Shown in pieces: positions 51,970-60,932 of a stretch of DNA of 64,000 bases. The position numbers and the translations under genes were made by a program. The notes below the pieces were generated by a model. It did not search any database. It was not told the DNA's origin and saw only the letters and a program-made list of their open reading frames with translations. Each line of letters opens with the position of its first letter. Position 1 is the stretch's first letter. The stretch comes from an uncultured Bacilli bacterium (GTDB lineage Bacteria; Bacillota_I; Bacilli_A; RF39; UBA660): assembly GCA_944359055.1 (NCBI GenBank), contig CALVSO010000002.1, positions 5,935 through 69,934 of the forward strand, read 5' to 3'.

Positions 51970-52706
51970 GGTATTTAATTACATTTAGTTATGATGGTTC
52001 AAAATTTAAAGGTTATCAAAAGCAACCTAGATTGAAAACTGTACAAGGAGAAATAGAAAAAGCTTTAAAAGAATTGAGTGGTAAGGATATTTCAATATCA
52101 GGTTCAGGTAGAACAGATGCAGGTGTTCATGCTTTAAATCAAAAGGCTCATTTTGATTTAGATATGAATATTACATGTGATAAGTTACAAAAAGCGTTAA
52201 ATAGTTTTTTAAAAGATTATATTTATATTAAAAGAGTGGAAGAAGTAAGTGAAGATTTTCATGCTAGATTTAATGTTTCTGCTAAAGAATATATTTATAA
52301 AATAAATATGGGTGAATATAGTCCAATAGAAAAAGATTATATTTATCAATATAATAAAAAATTAGATTTAGTTGAAATGGAAAGAGCTTTAAAATATTTA
52401 GAAGGAACTCATGATTTTAAATCATTTTCAAAAGCAGATGAAGAAAAAGAAGATTTTACTAGAACTATTATTCAGACTAATTTAATTAGAAATGTTAAGG
52501 ATGTTAATAGATTCATTATTTCTTTTTTGGGTACTGGTTTTTTGAGATATCAAGTAAGAAATATGGTTGGTCTATTAATTGAAATAGGTGAAGGCAAAAG
52601 AAAAAGTGAAGAAGTATTAGATATATTAGAAGCTAAAGATAGAAGAAAAGCTGGTATTACTGCGCCACCTGAAGGATTATATCTTAAAGATGTTTTTTAT
52701 AAATAA
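51966..52706 (+). CDS. truA: tRNA pseudouridine(38-40) synthase TruA
   Basis: ISGSGRTDAGVHALNQ catalytic Asp motif. Confidence 0.88.
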   Translation: MRYLITFSYDGSKFKGYQKQPRLKTVQGEIEKALKELSGKDISISGSGRTDAGVHALNQKAHFDLDMNITCDKLQKALNSFLKDYIYIKRVEEVSEDFHARFNVSAKEYIYKINMGEYSPIEKDYIYQYNKKLDLVEMERALKYLEGTHDFKSFSKADEEKEDFTRTIIQTNLIRNVKDVNRFIISFLGTGFLRYQVRNMVGLLIEIGEGKRKSEEVLDILEAKDRRKAGITAPPEGLYLKDVFYK

Positions 52707-52733
52707 AAAGTTAACAAAAAACATATAATTTCA

Positions 52734-52762
52734 TTGACAAATATATGTTTTTTTTATATAAT
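52734..52762 (+). promoter_or_regulatory. Consensus sigma-A promoter (TTGACA-17-TATAAT) for rplM-rpsI
   Basis: Read directly. Confidence 0.6.
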
Positions 52763-52839
52763 TAATAGCGGTACATTAATTTATTCCCACATTTAATGAA
52801 TCTTGGGACAATTCATTATTTGGAAGAAAGGAAAATAAT
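52763..52839 (+). promoter_or_regulatory. rplM 5' leader with a hairpin (aatgaat-cttgggaca-attcatt); candidate L13 autoregulatory leader
   Basis: Inverted repeat read at 52795-52817. Firmicute rplM leaders are known cis-regulators. Confidence 0.3.
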
Positions 52840-53268
52840 ATGAAAAATTCTTATATGCAAAGAAAAGAAGATGTAGTAAGAGATTGGTGGGTAATCGATG
52901 CTGAAGGTGAAAATTTAGGTCGTTTAGCTACTAAAGTTGCTACAGTATTACGTGGTAAACACAAACCAACTTATACTCCACATATTGATGGTGGTGATAA
53001 CGTTATCATAATTAATGCTAGTAAAATTAATTTAACTGGTAATAAATTAGATGATAAAATCTATTACAATCATAGTGGATATACTGGTGGATTAAGAGAA
53101 AGAACTGCAAGAACTATGCGTGAAGATTATCCTGTAGAAATGATTGAAAGAGCTGTAAAAGGTATGTTACCAAAAGGAAGATTAGGTAGACAAATGTATA
53201 AAAAATTATTTGTTTATGCTGGAAGCGAACATCCACATATGGCTCAAAAACCAAAGGAAATGAAATAG
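52840..53268 (+). CDS. rplM: 50S ribosomal protein L13
   Basis: [19 protein letters not shown]. Confidence 0.94.
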
Positions 53269-53277
53269 GAGGAATTT

Positions 53278-53691
53278 ATGGAAAAGAAAATATATCTTGG
53301 TACTGGTAGAAGAAAATCTTCTGTAGCTCAAGTTAAAATGACTTCAGGTAGCGGTAAAATTACTGTTAATGGTCGTGATGTTAGAGAATTCTTCCCATAT
53401 GAAACTAATGTTATGGATTTAATGCAACCATTAGTAGCTACAAATAACGAAAAAACATTCGATATTGATGTAAAAGTTAATGGTGGCGGTTTTACAGGTC
53501 AAACAGGAGCAATCAGATTAGGAATTACAAGAGCTTTATTAGAATATGATAAAGTAAATGAAGAATCAGAAAATAGTTATCGTAAAGTTTTAAAAAGAGC
53601 TGGTTTTGTAACTAGAGACGCAAGACAAAAAGAACGTAAGAAACCAGGATTAAAAGCAGCTCGTCGTGCACCACAATTTAGTAAAAGATAA
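53278..53691 (+). CDS. rpsI: 30S ribosomal protein S9
   Basis: C-terminal ...[16 protein letters not shown]. Confidence 0.94.
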
Positions 53692-53717
53692 TCAAGTATT
53701 TACTTGGTTATTTTTTT
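53691..53717 (+). terminator. Probable intrinsic terminator after rpsI
   Basis: atcaagta-tt-tacttggt stem plus a T7 run. Confidence 0.45.
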
Positions 53718-53745
53718 GTGTTAAAATTGATTTGGTGGTGATTTT

Positions 53746-55125
53746 ATGGAAAATATTTCACAAATAACTGATATGTTAGAGCTTGAAATAGAAAAATTTA
53801 AATCTGACAAAGATGAATTAGAACAAGCAAAAACTTTAAATGATTTATATGAAGATATTATTAGTTCAGCTGGTGATATAAATAAAATAATAAACAACAA
53901 AGAAGCTATTTTAATAATATTAGATACATTTGATAAAGATATCGCTCTACAATTATCAAAAAAACTGGTTTTAATTCAATGGTATCAACAAAAGAATTTG
54001 ATAGATTTAGATGAATATAAGAATGCTATTAAAATTGTAAATAATTTATTTGGTAAAATAATTAGAAAAAATGAAGAAATAAAAGACAAAATTGCCGATT
54101 TAAATAAAAGGATAAATGCCAACAAAGGCAAAATAAAATTATTTGAAATTACTTTAAAAAAAATAAAATATAAACAATATATACCATATAAAATTGTTAA
54201 ATTTTTAGATAATTTTTTTCAAGAAAAAGAAATTTCACAAATTGAACAAATTAAATTTTTAGAAATTATAAATATATATAATAGAAATATATACGAAAAG
54301 ATTCATCATTATTCTCCAAGTTATAAAAATGAAGTTTTAGATATGTTATCATTTGGATTTGAAATAATTGAAGATAATAGTCTTGATTATAATCAAGACA
54401 TTGCTAAGAAAGCAGATCTCCATTATTCTCTTTTAAAATATCAAGATGATTTTAAACAATATTTTGAAGAAATTAGGCAAGAAATATTAAACGAAAATGA
54501 TTTAAAATTGTTTTTTATAATAATGATTCAAAAGTTACAAGAGCAGATACTTGAAAATATTACATTAATTAAAGATAAAGATTTCTATGTCGATCTGGAT
54601 ACAAAAAAAGAAATTGTTAATGAATTTAAAAGATTAACGAGTCTATCTCTAAAATTTAGAAAAGAATATTTTAATATTATTAGTAAAGATGATGAAGTTG
54701 TTGAAACATCTGATATAAAAGTAATTTTTGCTCAAGATTCAAATGGTAAAACATATTTTTTAAAGGATTTAAAAAATATCAATAATGAATATTTACCAAA
54801 AGTTTTAGATTTAATTACATCATTAATTAATGGTACACTAACAAATAAAAATATTGAGGGTTTTACATCTCTTTACAAAGATTTTAGAAAATTAAAAGAT
54901 GATCAAATAAGAATTGTCTTACATCCAATTAATCCTAAACTTTATTGTATAATGGGGGTTGGAGTAAAAAAGAATAATACAGGTAATATTATATATAAAA
55001 CTTTATGTGGAAGAAAATATCCAACAAATGAAACAGAAATATCTAGATTACTTGAAAGTAGTGATAATGATTTAGAATATATTGAACAATATATTATGGA
55101 AAACAAAAGGAAGGGAAATAGATGA
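53746..55125 (+). CDS. Hypothetical K/E/N-rich helical protein with a RelE/ParE-like C-terminal region
   Basis: C-terminus ...FRKLKDDQIRIVLHPINPKLYCIMGVGVKKNNTGNIIYK resembles the RelE/ParE beta-strand core (yRivY.vd...v.il.vGhRk..Y). No other recognisable motif. Confidence 0.45.
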   Translation: MENISQITDMLELEIEKFKSDKDELEQAKTLNDLYEDIISSAGDINKIINNKEAILIILDTFDKDIALQLSKKLVLIQWYQQKNLIDLDEYKNAIKIVNNLFGKIIRKNEEIKDKIADLNKRINANKGKIKLFEITLKKIKYKQYIPYKIVKFLDNFFQEKEISQIEQIKFLEIINIYNRNIYEKIHHYSPSYKNEVLDMLSFGFEIIEDNSLDYNQDIAKKADLHYSLLKYQDDFKQYFEEIRQEILNENDLKLFFIIMIQKLQEQILENITLIKDKDFYVDLDTKKEIVNEFKRLTSLSLKFRKEYFNIISKDDEVVETSDIKVIFAQDSNGKTYFLKDLKNINNEYLPKVLDLITSLINGTLTNKNIEGFTSLYKDFRKLKDDQIRIVLHPINPKLYCIMGVGVKKNNTGNIIYKTLCGRKYPTNETEISRLLESSDNDLEYIEQYIMENKRKGNR

Positions 55126-55316
55126 TAGAATATTTATTAAAAGAATTACTTGATATGAATGTATCTAATGAAGATTTTGATGAAAAATACTATATATTAT
55201 TAAAAAATGTAAGTCAAATGAGTAGTGAACAATTACAAAAACTTAAACAAATTGTTTTGAAAAAATTAGAGTATGATTCAGGAATTTATGAACGAGAAGC
55301 AGAAAGGACAAAATAA
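55122..55316 (+). CDS. Hypothetical 64-aa protein, translationally coupled on both sides
   Basis: ATGA overlaps with the upstream gene and with ldh. Confidence 0.35.
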   Translation: MIEYLLKELLDMNVSNEDFDEKYYILLKNVSQMSSEQLQKLKQIVLKKLEYDSGIYEREAERTK

Positions 55317-56218
55317 TGAATAAGATAGTTTTAATTGGATGCGGTAATGTTGGTATGAGTTATGCTTATGCTTTATTAAATCAAAATACTAATGTAAATG
55401 AATTGGTTTTAATTGATTTAGATAAAGAAAGAGTGGTAGGCGAAGTAATGGATTTAAATCATTGTTTAGCTTTTGCACCAAATAAAATTGATATTAAAGC
55501 AGGTAGTTATGAAGATTGTAAAAATGCTACTATAGTAGTTATTGCAGCTGGTGCAAATCAAGAAAAAGGTGAAACAAGAATGGATTTAATCTATAAAAAT
55601 AGTAAAATCTTTAAAGATATTGTTACTAAAGTTATGGATAGTGGTTTTAATGGTATTTTTTTAGTAGCTACTAATCCATTAGATGTAATGACATATTTAA
55701 CATGGAAATATTCTAATTTACCTACTAATAAAATAATTGGATCAGGCACTAGTTTAGATACATCAAGACTAAGATATATGATAGCAGATAAATTAGAAAT
55801 TAGTCCTAAAAATGTTCATGCTTATGTTATTGGGGAACATGGTGATTCAGAGTTTGTTCCTTGGAGTAATGCCAATATAGGACTACAAAATATTAAAGAT
55901 TATTTAAATGATAATGAATTAAATGAAATTTACTTAAATGTTAAAAATGCTGCTTATGAAATAATCAACAGAAAAGGTGCTACATACTATGGAATTGGTA
56001 TGTGTTTAGTTAGAATTACAAATGCTATTTTAAATAACGAGAATAGTATTATAACAGTGTCAACTTATGATGAAGAAAATAATATTTTTATTGGATTGCC
56101 AGCTATTATTAATAAAAATGGAATTAAAGGTAAGATATTTGTTAATTTAACAGATGAAGAAACTAAAAAATTACAAGATTCAATCAATGTAATTAAAGAG
56201 GCTATATCTAGACTATAA
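55316..56218 (+). CDS. ldh: L-lactate dehydrogenase
   Basis: IVLIGCGNVGMSYA NAD motif, GEHGDS catalytic His. Confidence 0.88.
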   Translation: MNKIVLIGCGNVGMSYAYALLNQNTNVNELVLIDLDKERVVGEVMDLNHCLAFAPNKIDIKAGSYEDCKNATIVVIAAGANQEKGETRMDLIYKNSKIFKDIVTKVMDSGFNGIFLVATNPLDVMTYLTWKYSNLPTNKIIGSGTSLDTSRLRYMIADKLEISPKNVHAYVIGEHGDSEFVPWSNANIGLQNIKDYLNDNELNEIYLNVKNAAYEIINRKGATYYGIGMCLVRITNAILNNENSIITVSTYDEENNIFIGLPAIINKNGIKGKIFVNLTDEETKKLQDSINVIKEAISRL

Positions 56219-56291
56219 GTTGACAGGGAAAAAATATTTTTCTTGACTAAGAAGTTTCATGATAATATAATTTTTATTAGAGGCGATTAAA

Positions 56292-57443
56292 ATGATCAAT
56301 AGAATTATATTAAATGAAACTTCTTATTTTGGTTATGGGTCAAGAAGTGTATTAAAAGATGAGATAAAAAAAAGAAGATATAAAAAAGCTTTAATAGTAA
56401 CGCAAGAAAATATTTTAAAAAATGTTACTGATAAAGTATTACAAGTATTAGAAGGATTTGAATACGAATTATTTATGGAAATAAAACCAAATCCAACTAT
56501 AAAAAATGTTAAAGATGGTGTTAGTAAATGTAAGGAAATTAATGCTGATTATATTATTGCTATTGGTGGTGGATCAGTTATTGATACTGCTAAAGCAATT
56601 GGTATTATTATGACTAATCCTGAATTTAGTAATGTTGTTTCTTTAGATGGTACTGCAGAAACAAAAAATAAGTCATTACCTATTATAGCTATTCCAACTA
56701 CTGCTGGAACTGCAGCAGAAGTAACTATTAACTATGTTATAACTGATGAAGAAAGAGTTAAAAAAATGGTATGCGTTGATCCTCATGATATTCCTGTTTT
56801 ATCAATTATTGATCAAGAATTAATGATGGAAATGCCTAAAATGGTAGCTGCTTCTACTGGTATGGATGCTTTAACTCATGCTATTGAAGGATTTATTACT
56901 AAAGCTGCTTGGGAAATGACCGATATGTTTCATTTAGAAGCAATTAAATTAATATTTAATAGTATTGAACAAGCGGTAAATGAAAAAGATAAAAAAGCTA
57001 TTGAAAATGTAGGATTAGGTCAATATATAGCCGGTATGGGATTTTCTAATGTAGGTTTAGGCTTAGTTCATGCTATGGCTCATCCATTAGGAGCTTTATA
57101 TGATACACCACATGGTATAGCTAATGCAGTTATTTTACCTTATGTAATAGAATATAACTCTAATGTTTGTTATGATAAATTAAAAGAAATAGCTAAAGCT
57201 ATGAATTTAGAAGTTGATAATTTATCTAATGAAGAAGTAGCTAGTAATATAGTAAATTCTATTAAAGAAATGAATAAAAAATTAGGTATTCCTTCTAATT
57301 TAAAAGAATTAAATGCTTCTTTAAAAGATATGGATTGGCTAGCTAATGCTGCTTATAATGATATTTGTTTAGGTGGTAATCCAAAAGAAGCTAGTGTTGA
57401 AAATATTAAAAAAATATACGAAAGAATATATGAGGGGATTTAA
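56292..57443 (+). CDS. Iron-containing (group III) alcohol dehydrogenase (lactaldehyde/propanediol oxidoreductase-like)
   Basis: GGGSVIDTAKA motif and His-rich metal site (HAMAHPLGA). Confidence 0.82.
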   Translation: MINRIILNETSYFGYGSRSVLKDEIKKRRYKKALIVTQENILKNVTDKVLQVLEGFEYELFMEIKPNPTIKNVKDGVSKCKEINADYIIAIGGGSVIDTAKAIGIIMTNPEFSNVVSLDGTAETKNKSLPIIAIPTTAGTAAEVTINYVITDEERVKKMVCVDPHDIPVLSIIDQELMMEMPKMVAASTGMDALTHAIEGFITKAAWEMTDMFHLEAIKLIFNSIEQAVNEKDKKAIENVGLGQYIAGMGFSNVGLGLVHAMAHPLGALYDTPHGIANAVILPYVIEYNSNVCYDKLKEIAKAMNLEVDNLSNEEVASNIVNSIKEMNKKLGIPSNLKELNASLKDMDWLANAAYNDICLGGNPKEASVENIKKIYERIYEGI

Positions 57444-57480
57444 AATCTCCTTTTATTTATGGTATAATTAATAAAGGTGA
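57437..57480 (+). repeat. Copy 1 of a 44-bp terminator-hairpin/extended -10/RBS module (gatttaaaatctccttttatttatggtataattaataaaggtga)
   Basis: Identical copy at 57933-57976. Each copy lies 4-8 nt upstream of an ATG. Confidence 0.7.
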
Positions 57481-57484
57481 TAAG

Positions 57485-57898
57485 ATGCAAATATTAAAAA
57501 ATATAAAATTAAATAATATAAATTATTATGCAGTAATCGAATTAGAATATAAGCAATCAGAAAACAAATTGCCAGTATTACGTCTTAAAAATTACAAAGA
57601 TGGTTATTGGGATAGCGGAGATTGTTCAATTTTAATTGAAAAAATTGAAGAAAATTATTCATCAAAAAAAGCACATCAATATGATAATAATATTGCTTAC
57701 ATGGCTGATATTTTATATATATATGATAGAATGCCTTTTATAAGTGGTGTAAAAGACATTAACATTTCTAATAATATGATATCTGAAGAATCATATATTT
57801 CAAAAGAAGAAATAGAAAAATATATTAAAGAATTTGATGTAAAAATGAATTATATTGATAATTTTAAATTAAGTGATTCTAGGACTTGGAAATTTTAA
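57485..57898 (+). CDS. Hypothetical 137-aa protein flanked by the duplicated module
   Basis: No recognisable motif. Preceded by TGgTATAAT and RBS aaaggtga. Confidence 0.45.
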   Translation: MQILKNIKLNNINYYAVIELEYKQSENKLPVLRLKNYKDGYWDSGDCSILIEKIEENYSSKKAHQYDNNIAYMADILYIYDRMPFISGVKDINISNNMISEESYISKEEIEKYIKEFDVKMNYIDNFKLSDSRTWKF

Positions 57899-59478: not shown

Positions 59479-59564
59479 ACACAAAAGTGTCTAATTTTTT
59501 AATATTTGACAAAACAACTTTAAATAAAATTTATTTATGGTAAAATAATTATTTGAGGTATATT

Positions 59565-60932
59565 ATGAAGAAGATAGTTATCATAGTTGTTATAAGTTTT
59601 ATTATTTTATTATATTTATTTACTTTAAAAATAAATATAACTGTGAATAGTGATAATGTTAAAGTATTTGATAATTATAATGAAGATATATCAAGCTGTT
59701 TAGAAGATATATTTGGTTTTTGCTTGTTCAAATTACCAGTTAATATAGAAGGTAATGTTGATACTAATGTAATTGGTAATTATAAAATTACATATGAATC
59801 AAAAATATTATTTAAAAATAAAAAAATAGAAAAAGAAATAAAAGTTTATGATGATGAACCTCCAGTTATTACTGTGGATAAAGATGTAATTGAGTCTTGT
59901 CCAAATAAAAATGGTGATATTACATATAAAGCTGTGGATAATTATGATAATGATATAACTGACAAAGTAACTAAAGAAGTAATTGATAATAAATATGTTT
60001 TGAAAGTTAGTGATAGTTCAAATAATGAAACTATTTTAGAAATACCAATAGAATATAAAGATAATGAAAAACCAACAATAAAATTAAAAGGATCTAGTAT
60101 AGTTTATTTGAAAATTGGTGAAAAATATAATGAATATGGTTATACTGCTATTGATAATTGTTTAGGCGATATAACTAATAGAGTAAAGATAAGTGGTAAT
60201 GTTGATAGCAATAAAGCAGGAAAATATACTATAACATATTCAGTATCTGATGATTTGAATAATAAAATTGAAGTCACTAGAACAGTTTATGTATATAATA
60301 AAAATCCTGATATTCCAGTAGGAGATAAAGTAATTTATTTAACATTTGATGATGGTCCAAGTAGTTATACTAATACTTTATTAGATACATTAAAAAAATA
60401 TAATGTAAAAGCTACATTTTTCGTAACTAGTAATGGAAGTGATTCAACAATTAAAAGAGCTTATCAAGAAGGACATAGTATAGGAATTCATAGTTATAGT
60501 CATAAATATAACGAAATATATAAAAGTGAAGAAGCGTTTTTTAAAGATGTAGACAAAGTTAATAATAGAATAAAAAGAATAACAGGAGAATATAGTCGTA
60601 TTTTAAGATTTGCTGGTGGTAGTTCTAATACTGTAAGTAGATTTAATAAAGGAATAATGAGTAGATTATCTAAAGAAGTTGAATTAAGAGGTTATAAATA
60701 TTTTGATTGGAATGTTTCTTCATCTGATACAATTACAAATGATTCAAATAAAATAGCTAATAATGTTATAAAAAGTTTAAGAAAAGGAAATAATGTAGTA
60801 TTACAACATGATACAAAATATGGAAGTGTCAAAGCAGTAGAACAAATAATTCAATATGGATTATCACATGGATATGTATTTGCTTCATTAAATGTAACCA
60901 GTCCAACAGTGCATCATGCTATTAATAATTAA
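59565..60932 (+). CDS. Membrane-anchored polysaccharide deacetylase (NodB domain, PdaB-like) with N-terminal Ig-like domains
   Basis: TFDDGP and HSYSH motifs. N-terminal TM helix. Confidence 0.75.
   Translation: MKKIVIIVVISFIILLYLFTLKINITVNSDNVKVFDNYNEDISSCLEDIFGFCLFKLPVNIEGNVDTNVIGNYKITYESKILFKNKKIEKEIKVYDDEPPVITVDKDVIESCPNKNGDITYKAVDNYDNDITDKVTKEVIDNKYVLKVSDSSNNETILEIPIEYKDNEKPTIKLKGSSIVYLKIGEKYNEYGYTAIDNCLGDITNRVKISGNVDSNKAGKYTITYSVSDDLNNKIEVTRTVYVYNKNPDIPVGDKVIYLTFDDGPSSYTNTLLDTLKKYNVKATFFVTSNGSDSTIKRAYQEGHSIGIHSYSHKYNEIYKSEEAFFKDVDKVNNRIKRITGEYSRILRFAGGSSNTVSRFNKGIMSRLSKEVELRGYKYFDWNVSSSDTITNDSNKIANNVIKSLRKGNNVVLQHDTKYGSVKAVEQIIQYGLSHGYVFASLNVTSPTVHHAINN

Follow-up and report, generated by a model that had tools for sequence, protein, structure and literature searches.

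The described systems closest to the locus analysed here are the HigB toxin of Streptococcus pneumoniae (PDB 6AF3/6AF4) and the HigB1/TAC toxin of Mycobacterium tuberculosis (PDB 7NBU/7AWK). These ribosome-dependent mRNases of the Gp49 type (PF05973) are single-domain proteins of about 115-125 residues, and they are paired with a helix-turn-helix (HTH, of XRE type) antitoxin, to which M. tuberculosis adds a SecB-like chaperone. We examined a stretch of 64,000 nucleotides from an uncultured Bacilli bacterium (contig CALVSO010000002.1, positions 5,935 to 69,934, forward strand; hereafter the window), in which two unnamed genes, which we call X and Y, lie between rpsI and the lactate dehydrogenase gene ldh. 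The C-terminal domain of X groups structurally with HigB and HigB1. Unlike these toxins, however, X has an unrelated helical domain of 316 residues in front, it has a partner without HTH domain or no partner at all, it falls below detection by the Gp49 hidden Markov model, and in the window copy the equivalents of HigB E66 and F90 are K and G; the order X-Y, with the toxin upstream and the partner downstream, is that of higBA. Our analysis suggests that X is a HigB/Gp49-type ribosome-dependent mRNA endonuclease domain restrained in cis by an acidic helical domain, with Y adding a layer in trans at this locus, a reading whose chances we put at about even. The features on which the argument turns are these:

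53746-55125, + strand: X, 459 residues, between rpsI and Y
53746..54693, + strand: N-terminal domain of X (residues 1-316), acidic (isoelectric point, pI, 5.3), all alpha-helical, proposed cis-regulatory or sensor domain
54694..55122, + strand: C-terminal domain of X (residues 317-459), basic (pI 9.0), RelE/ParE-superfamily fold of HigB/Gp49 type
54889..54972, + strand: putative active-site segment K382-K409 (KLKDDQIRIV...GVGVKK), placed by its spacing match to S. pneumoniae HigB
55108-55122, + strand: C-terminal tail R-K-G-x-R (X residues 455-459), with R455 in 105/128 and R459 in 107/128 full-length family representatives, the rest mostly gaps
55122-55316, + strand: Y, 64 residues, acidic (pI 4.9), a new family, its ATG overlapping the X stop (ATGA)

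Other systems share parts of this design. In fused toxin-antitoxin defence proteins of the CapRel(SJ46) type, a translation-targeting toxin domain is held inactive by a fast-evolving sensing domain. The model proposed for X shares this concept of one polypeptide with a restrained toxin domain, whereas the toxin fold of CapRel(SJ46) is toxSAS rather than RelE, the domain order is opposite, and X gives no sign of phage-protein sensing. Cami1 (PDB 8PHB) is a CARF-RelE fusion of type III CRISPR signalling, but the N-terminal domain of X is not CARF and X has no CRISPR neighbourhood. X also differs from the fused and multidomain BECR toxins surveyed by Gerdes 2025 (PMC11980606): its N-terminal domain is not HTH, transmembrane or PtuA-linked and does not occur among the multidomain RelE/ParE proteins of that catalogue, and its neighbourhood holds no known defence system. 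The survey started from Pfam-detectable members, which X is not.

The evidence for the toxin fold comes from structure and from sequence. We used an AlphaFold2 model of X built on 13 homologues, with a mean predicted local distance difference test score of 85 and a predicted template modelling score (pTM) of 0.52. In a Foldseek comparison with the PDB, the top 11 matches are RelE/HigB toxin chains (probability 0.99-1.00, E 4e-3 to 0.1), followed by RelE1, YafQ, RelE3, YoeB, HigB2, ParE and others; the first 21 matches are all toxins from the RelE/ParE superfamily, and match 22 is Cami1. Judged by this model, the C-terminal domain belongs to the RelE/ParE superfamily (BECR fold), and a long C-terminal helix, alpha3, extends beyond the RelE core as in Gp49/HigB1-type toxins. 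The first-pass annotation had seen a RelE/ParE likeness in the last 90 residues of X. The likeness holds up in the Foldseek matches, but its extent was underestimated: the model shows about 140 residues (~317-459) in a HigB/Gp49-type fold. At the level of sequence, 4 of 16 C-terminal domains of the family match Pfam Gp49 below threshold (best E 4.2e-4). The best-scoring relative, from locus L025 (related loci are cited by such handles), reaches 18.4 bits (E 0.0023, profile positions 2-79 of 90), the gathering score being 23.9 bits, and window X itself has no match to Gp49 at E <= 1 with the full protein or at E <= 10 with the C-terminal domain alone. Aligning the family profile by hhalign with M. 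tuberculosis HigB1 (the PDB 7AWK/7NBU sequence except for the engineered K95A) aligns beta1-alpha1-alpha2 at a weakly significant E of 0.009, for the first half of the domain only; with E. coli RelE the C-terminal profile gave no significant alignment (probability 0.2), and family profiles against PDB sequences gave chance matches only.

Does X keep the residues on which HigB activity depends? Mansour et al. equate R68/R77/K95 of HigB1 with K54/R61/R81 of RelE and with R68/R73/K92 of S. pneumoniae HigB, and place E66 and F93 (HigB1) or F90 (S. pneumoniae HigB) in the catalytic pocket as well (PMC9098466). In S. pneumoniae HigB, Kang et al. found that R68A, R73A and F90A strongly cut activity and toxicity while K92A does so weakly (PMC7984235). 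We compared X with the sets E66, R68, R73, F90, K92 of S. pneumoniae HigB and E66, R68, R77, F93, K95 of HigB1. Residues 382, 384, 389, 406 and 408 of X are spaced exactly as 66, 68, 73, 90 and 92 of S. pneumoniae HigB, with a constant offset of +316, and they sit in the matching secondary structure (beta2, beta3 and, at its end, beta4). Taking fold, spacing and secondary structure together, we infer that the HigB catalytic residues map onto these five positions. Across the full-length family representatives, the candidate positions and their neighbours read as follows:

position 382: E in 111/128
position 384: K or R in 122/128
position 389: R in 126/128
position 406: F in 79/128, G in 21/128
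position 408: K in 127/128
position 409: K in 120/128
position 423: R in 126/128

Since the five candidate positions are conserved family-wide, the family as a whole appears to keep a HigB-like catalytic pocket. Window X retains K384, R389 and K408, and deviates from the family at K382 and G406. Among loci with known context, K382 and G406 occur in the Y-linked clades and E and F in the partner-less members, while L016 combines E382 with G406 and has a different downstream open reading frame (ORF) of 117-128 residues in place of Y. The state of the active site and the presence of a partner may therefore be coupled, in a sample that is small and confounded by phylogeny. The RKGxR tail, conserved in the roughly 100 members in which it can be aligned, follows the long C-terminal helix; because the corresponding helix of M. 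tuberculosis HigB1 contacts the P-site tRNA, the tail may be an RNA contact.

X is not an isolated gene. A profile search run exhaustively over 1.84 billion representatives (clusters at 50% identity) finds at least 648 members at E <= 1e-3, of which 273 lie at <= 1e-10 and 169 at <= 1e-30; among the best 150 of the 648, nearly all are 410-515 residues long and match the profile end to end. No homologue of X or Y that we checked has a name from any source, and the first 33 clusters of X are all metagenomic. The genome matches are metagenome-assembled genomes (MAGs) labelled uncultured Bacilli, Tenericutes, Erysipelotrichaceae, Mycoplasma sp. or Candidatus Faecisoma merdavium (Mycoplasmatota incertae sedis), and a metagenome scan gained few extra loci. 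X founds a large unnamed family in uncultured low-GC gut Bacilli and Mycoplasmatota. A 133-aa ORF in L023 and the 95-aa P0190, considered as stand-alone RelE-like paralogues, proved to be C-terminal pieces of frameshifted X. The members occur in the following contexts:

L001-L006, L008-L013, L026, L037-L046 (the window clade): rplM-rpsI-X-Y-ldh
L014, L015: pheS-pheT-X-Y, followed in L014 by hrcA-grpE-dnaK
L016: X, the 117-128-aa ORF, then rplU and rpmA
L017-L019, L021-L024 (seven MAGs): a metallo-beta-lactamase-fold gene, rlmH, X, ung, without Y
L020, L028, L032/L033: X alone beside a divergent suf operon, with a terminator directly after X in L020 and L032

In most clades, then, X has no partner gene and is packed into housekeeping operons or stands directly before a terminator. 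Partner-less members with the full E...[KR]...R...F.K signature in housekeeping operons imply that X is not constitutively toxic, and this is our main argument for autoinhibition. The N-terminal domain, for which we found no informative structural or sequence relative, is the proposed restraining part. The first 145 residues of X are, together with its C-terminal helix, its fastest-evolving parts, and this, like the lack of a partner in most clades, fits a domain that regulates the nuclease domain or acts as its sensor, a role that the first-pass annotation had raised. In the mechanism we propose, the C-terminal domain would most likely bind the ribosomal A site and cut the mRNA in it, in the manner of S. 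pneumoniae HigB and M. tuberculosis HigB1, and the acidic helical N-terminal domain of ~316 residues would hold it in check in cis until some signal, such as phage infection or stress, released it. In the window clade Y, translationally coupled to X, would act as an extra neutraliser or regulator, and the X-Y cassette would be transcribed together with ldh. What the analysis shows is the fold, the family-wide conservation of HigB-like positions in the active site, the purifying selection on the core, the accessory nature of the cassette and the co-divergence of X and Y; we infer the nuclease activity, its restraint by the N-terminal domain, the part played by Y and any role in defence.

How has the cassette evolved? 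We compared identities and nonsynonymous rates (dN) between the window and six relatives, with these protein identities:

RplM and RpsI: 95-100%
Ldh: 88-97%
X: 50-76%
Y: 36-72%

For X, dN lies at 0.13-0.39, compared with 0.014-0.057 for ldh (9-27 times), and the ratio of nonsynonymous to synonymous rates (dN/dS) is 0.22-0.42 for X, 0.31-1.31 for Y and 0.03-0.22 for the flanks. In the core of X (residues 366-425) dN/dS falls to 0.06-0.17, which indicates strong purifying selection there. L010 has the most divergent ldh yet carries an X allele of the window's group, and L011 pairs a close ldh with a deeply divergent X; this mismatch suggests allele replacement or very uneven rates at X. The first-pass annotation had called the two genes inserted, and related contigs agree: among contigs with an identical RpsI protein most carry X-Y, but one carries a GNAT gene (L038) and one a decayed Y alone (L042). 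In L038 a GNAT acetyltransferase of 142 residues (L038:4515-4943), the end of whose gene overlaps ldh, replaces X-Y; NCBIfam gives it generic similarity only (ArsN2, AAC(6'), RimI, E 1e-5 to 1e-4), and the candidates are a RimI-like enzyme or a GNAT toxin. In L042 (L042:4491-4670) X is cleanly gone and a Y homologue of 68% identity with a GTG start follows the conserved promoter directly; with an in-frame TAA at about codon 37, it reads as a decaying orphan partner, a pseudogene. In two independent samples (L035:376-1750 and L036:116-1490) a shared 5-nt deletion shifts the frame of X at about residue 279 and leaves Y intact. X is also split in L023:5061-6351, at a G-run and maybe by assembly error, and in L028:1227-2749, at about residue 140, and sequencing error is possible in both. 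Given frameshift, deletion and replacement in relatives, X is dispensable and its loss is frequent. As far as the few cases go, X decays first and Y afterwards, the order expected if Y counters X. These comparisons indicate that the cassette is an accessory, strain-variable and fast-evolving element in a fixed rpsI-ldh hot spot. The alternative raised at the outset, a conserved housekeeping pair without RelE similarity, disagrees on both counts, with RelE similarity present and the cassette accessory and strain-variable. The rapid change of residues 1-145 and the hot-spot behaviour fit a role in conflict (defence or addiction), although they are not proof of one.

Several observations weigh against a restrained HigB-type nuclease. 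No sequence method places window X in any RelE family, the best relative remaining at 18.4 against the required 23.9 bits, and a pTM of 0.52 leaves it uncertain how the model's two domains are placed relative to each other. In the window clade K replaces the conserved E382 and G replaces F406; because F90A makes S. pneumoniae HigB much less active, the window copy, with G406, may be weakened or altered. No DNA-binding or antitoxin domain can be recognised in Y, and most of the family lacks it. In the flanks covered, which in most loci span some 3 kb to either side, no integrase, phage, mobile-element or recognised defence gene adjoins X, and PADLOC gives no match. No relative of X was found on viral contigs (one search pattern used), so that a phage origin finds no support there. 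Finally, dN/dS of X is below 1 except in two saturated sub-region comparisons of distant alleles, and its faster evolution may be due to relaxed constraint and not to an arms race.

What, then, is the part played by Y? Its family has two conserved marks, MIE..LL at the N-terminus and a segment EQL...K..lKK. Neither Y nor its homologues match a Pfam, NCBIfam or PHROG family, and among 11 members no Pfam or HTH family turns up repeatedly. The phyletic distribution of the pair, a check that the first-pass annotation had proposed, is divided: Y follows X in the window clade, L014 and L015 (with the ATGA junction wherever read) and is absent elsewhere, most other clades having X without Y. Pairwise divergence of X and Y is correlated (rho 0.59, p 0.005), while that of X and ldh is not significantly so (rho 0.29), and neither X nor Y tracks ldh. 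The downstream ATGA coupling, the acidity of Y (pI 4.9, against 9.0 for the C-terminal domain of X), the co-divergence and the order of decay, with Y intact in L035/L036 where X is frameshifted and decayed in L042 where X is deleted, all fit Y as an antitoxin-like or regulatory partner of X, which makes the antitoxin-like role suggested by the first-pass annotation plausible. The same observations would suit a classical higBA-like type II toxin-antitoxin pair, in which neutralising X falls to Y alone and the N-terminal domain serves some other purpose, such as oligomerisation or localisation. The arrangement of a toxin upstream and a small gene directly downstream is found in the window clade, among all close relatives and also in L014 and L015, and such an order is typical of the gp49 family (PMC11980606). 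However, most members have neither Y nor another small downstream gene, and yet they show a fuller active-site signature than the Y-linked clade. Moreover Y, which contains no HTH, ribbon-helix-helix or Phd domain, does not have the character of the DNA-binding (HTH-XRE), autoregulating antitoxin of higBA, and the N-terminal domain is full length in nearly all of the best 150 of the 648 representatives. We consider a pair of this kind fairly unlikely.

The contexts of X invite a different thought, that of a domesticated ribosome-associated factor in which the HigB-like domain has a routine part in translation, such as mRNA surveillance, stalled-ribosome rescue or growth-rate control, in genome-reduced Bacilli, and X is neither a toxin nor a defence gene. 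X lies in or beside translation-related operons in four contexts (rpsI, pheT, rplU-rpmA and rlmH), with spacers of 8-20 nt; it keeps a fixed position within lineages, with no partner and no mobile context, and the family is large and full length. This association may nevertheless be chance, because translation genes are common in small genomes, and other contexts, for example suf/sodA, are unrelated to translation. A dN 9-27 times that of ldh, divergent alleles that do not track their flanks, and repeated frameshifts, a deletion and a replacement in close relatives also sit badly with a settled cellular function, and we think such a function unlikely. A narrower version deserves no greater probability: X would be a partner-less, self-restrained HigB-type mRNase domesticated in housekeeping operons (rpsI, pheT, rplU, rlmH) of genome-reduced gut Bacilli as a translation regulator or surveillance factor, not as a toxin for addiction or defence, and Y a clade-specific modulator linked to K382/G406.

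Could the fold instead, in the window clade at least, be catalytically dead and retained only for binding RNA, ribosomes or proteins? K382 in place of E and G406 in place of F point that way, given that F90A cripples S. pneumoniae HigB and that M. tuberculosis HigB2 and HigB3 are non-toxic paralogues without key residues (PMC9098466). On the other hand K384, R389, K408, K409 and R423 are nearly invariant (120-127 of 128), and the core is under strong purifying selection by the ratios given above. Since S. pneumoniae HigB depends little on K92 and E66 (PMC7984235), the loss of E382 need not inactivate X. A dead fold is in our view quite improbable. As for a secreted polymorphic toxin (LXG-like, of type VII secretion) with Y as its immunity protein, the likeness in helical N-terminal region, C-terminal BECR fold, small downstream gene and rapid divergence is superficial, and we regard it as very improbable, for Pfam finds no LXG, WXG or other secretion domain in X, within X conservation is highest in the C-terminal domain and variability highest at the N-terminus (polymorphic toxins show the opposite), most of the family lacks Y, and no secretion genes adjoin X in the 5-6 kb flanks of any locus.

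More generally, X defines a sizeable family (at least 648 clusters at 50% identity) missed by current annotation resources, and it brings a new architecture into the RelE/ParE superfamily, in which a helical domain of 316 residues precedes one of HigB type and a novel partner of 64 residues may be present or absent. As most members have no antitoxin gene and yet carry the HigB signature, they offer a natural test case for the control in cis of a ribosome-dependent nuclease. The rpsI-ldh slot also illustrates that the very small, gene-dense genomes of uncultured gut Bacilli and Mycoplasmatota keep variable hot spots for such cassettes inside core operons, a point of relevance to the way in which they cope with phage or stress. 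Even with an inactive or purely regulatory nuclease, the analysis provides annotation for hundreds of hypothetical proteins.

We turn to the locus itself, where the remaining features are:

52840-53268, + strand: rplM, upstream of rpsI
53278-53691, + strand: rpsI, directly upstream of the X slot
53687..53717, + strand: hairpin (53687-53712) and U-tract, just past the rpsI stop, AU-rich
53699..53727, + strand: promoter-like site for X-Y-ldh from a promoter scan (TTTACT, 17 nt, TAAAAT, with TG upstream as an extended -10)
53734..53741, + strand: Shine-Dalgarno-like GGTGGTGA, read from the sequence, 4 nt before the X start codon
55316-56218, + strand: ldh (L-lactate dehydrogenase), the conserved downstream gene (Pfam Ldh_1_N E 4e-44, Ldh_1_C E 4e-37)

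The window is very AT-rich (G+C fraction 0.17-0.31 in this stretch), and almost every ORF of at least 100 codons lies on its + strand. The first-pass annotation had placed two unannotatable genes between rpsI and ldh, and this description stands: X (459 residues) and Y (64 residues) are where it put them, neither has a family match in Pfam, NCBIfam, PADLOC or PHROGs (PADLOC-DB v2 gives a single chance-level match, PDC-S05, E 0.034, 12 bits), and the two peptides it quoted occur in X at residues 349 and 377. Its description of X as a K/E/N-rich helical protein is also apt, the composition being I 13.7, K 13.1, L 10.9, N 8.7, E 8.5 and D 8.1% and the model all-helical up to residue 316. The ATGA chaining into ldh needs amending: X and Y do overlap as ATGA, but the Y stop and the ldh start share a single base (TAATG). 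Because homologous clusters exist (33 for X and 17 for Y in the first searches) and dN/dS of X is below 1, X and Y are evidently real genes and not chance ORFs. Read-through of the X TGA stop under genetic code 4 is ruled out, as the homologues all end in ...RKGNR and the neighbours are intact under code 11. No paralogue of X was found within the window, the other 459-aa ORF (59553-60932) having been considered and ruled out.

The hairpin at the end of rpsI has a folding energy of -9.7 kcal/mol (z -4.6), with 0/200 shuffles as good, and hairpin and U-tract are alike in all 7 related loci except for one hairpin substitution (L011). They are probably a weak intrinsic terminator of the rplM-rpsI unit, which a consensus scan passed over, there being fewer than 3 G-C pairs in the stem. 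The site at 53699-53727 is the putative promoter of an X-Y-ldh unit: its extended -10 box (TGTTAAAAT / TGTTAGAAT) is conserved in relatives, conservation collapses right after the box, at the X start, and the box is retained in L042 and L038, both without X. The next strong promoter in the scan comes only at 56243-56271, ahead of an iron-containing alcohol dehydrogenase (Fe-ADH) gene, and X, Y and ldh are therefore most likely co-transcribed as one unit. An Rfam scan of 52500-57600 found no RNA family. Upstream of rplM, at 52734-52762, stands a perfect sigma-70 consensus promoter (TTGACA, 17 nt, TATAAT).

Some variation is also seen beside the cassette. In L045 (L045:3684-4593) ldh is called as two pieces of 135 and 146 residues, which suggests a disrupted ldh or an assembly error. 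Downstream of ldh, the Fe-ADH gene (56292-57443) and an unannotated 137-aa ORF (57485-57898) are both absent in L001/L009, and in L039, L043 and L044 only fragments of Fe-ADH are left; directly beside the cassette region there is thus a second stretch that is unstable. The truA-rplM spacer is variable as well: L038/L042:2607-3419 (+) encodes a protein of 270 residues without family match, and L046:1354-2541 (-) encodes an HTH_38 protein of 395 residues that is transposase-like.

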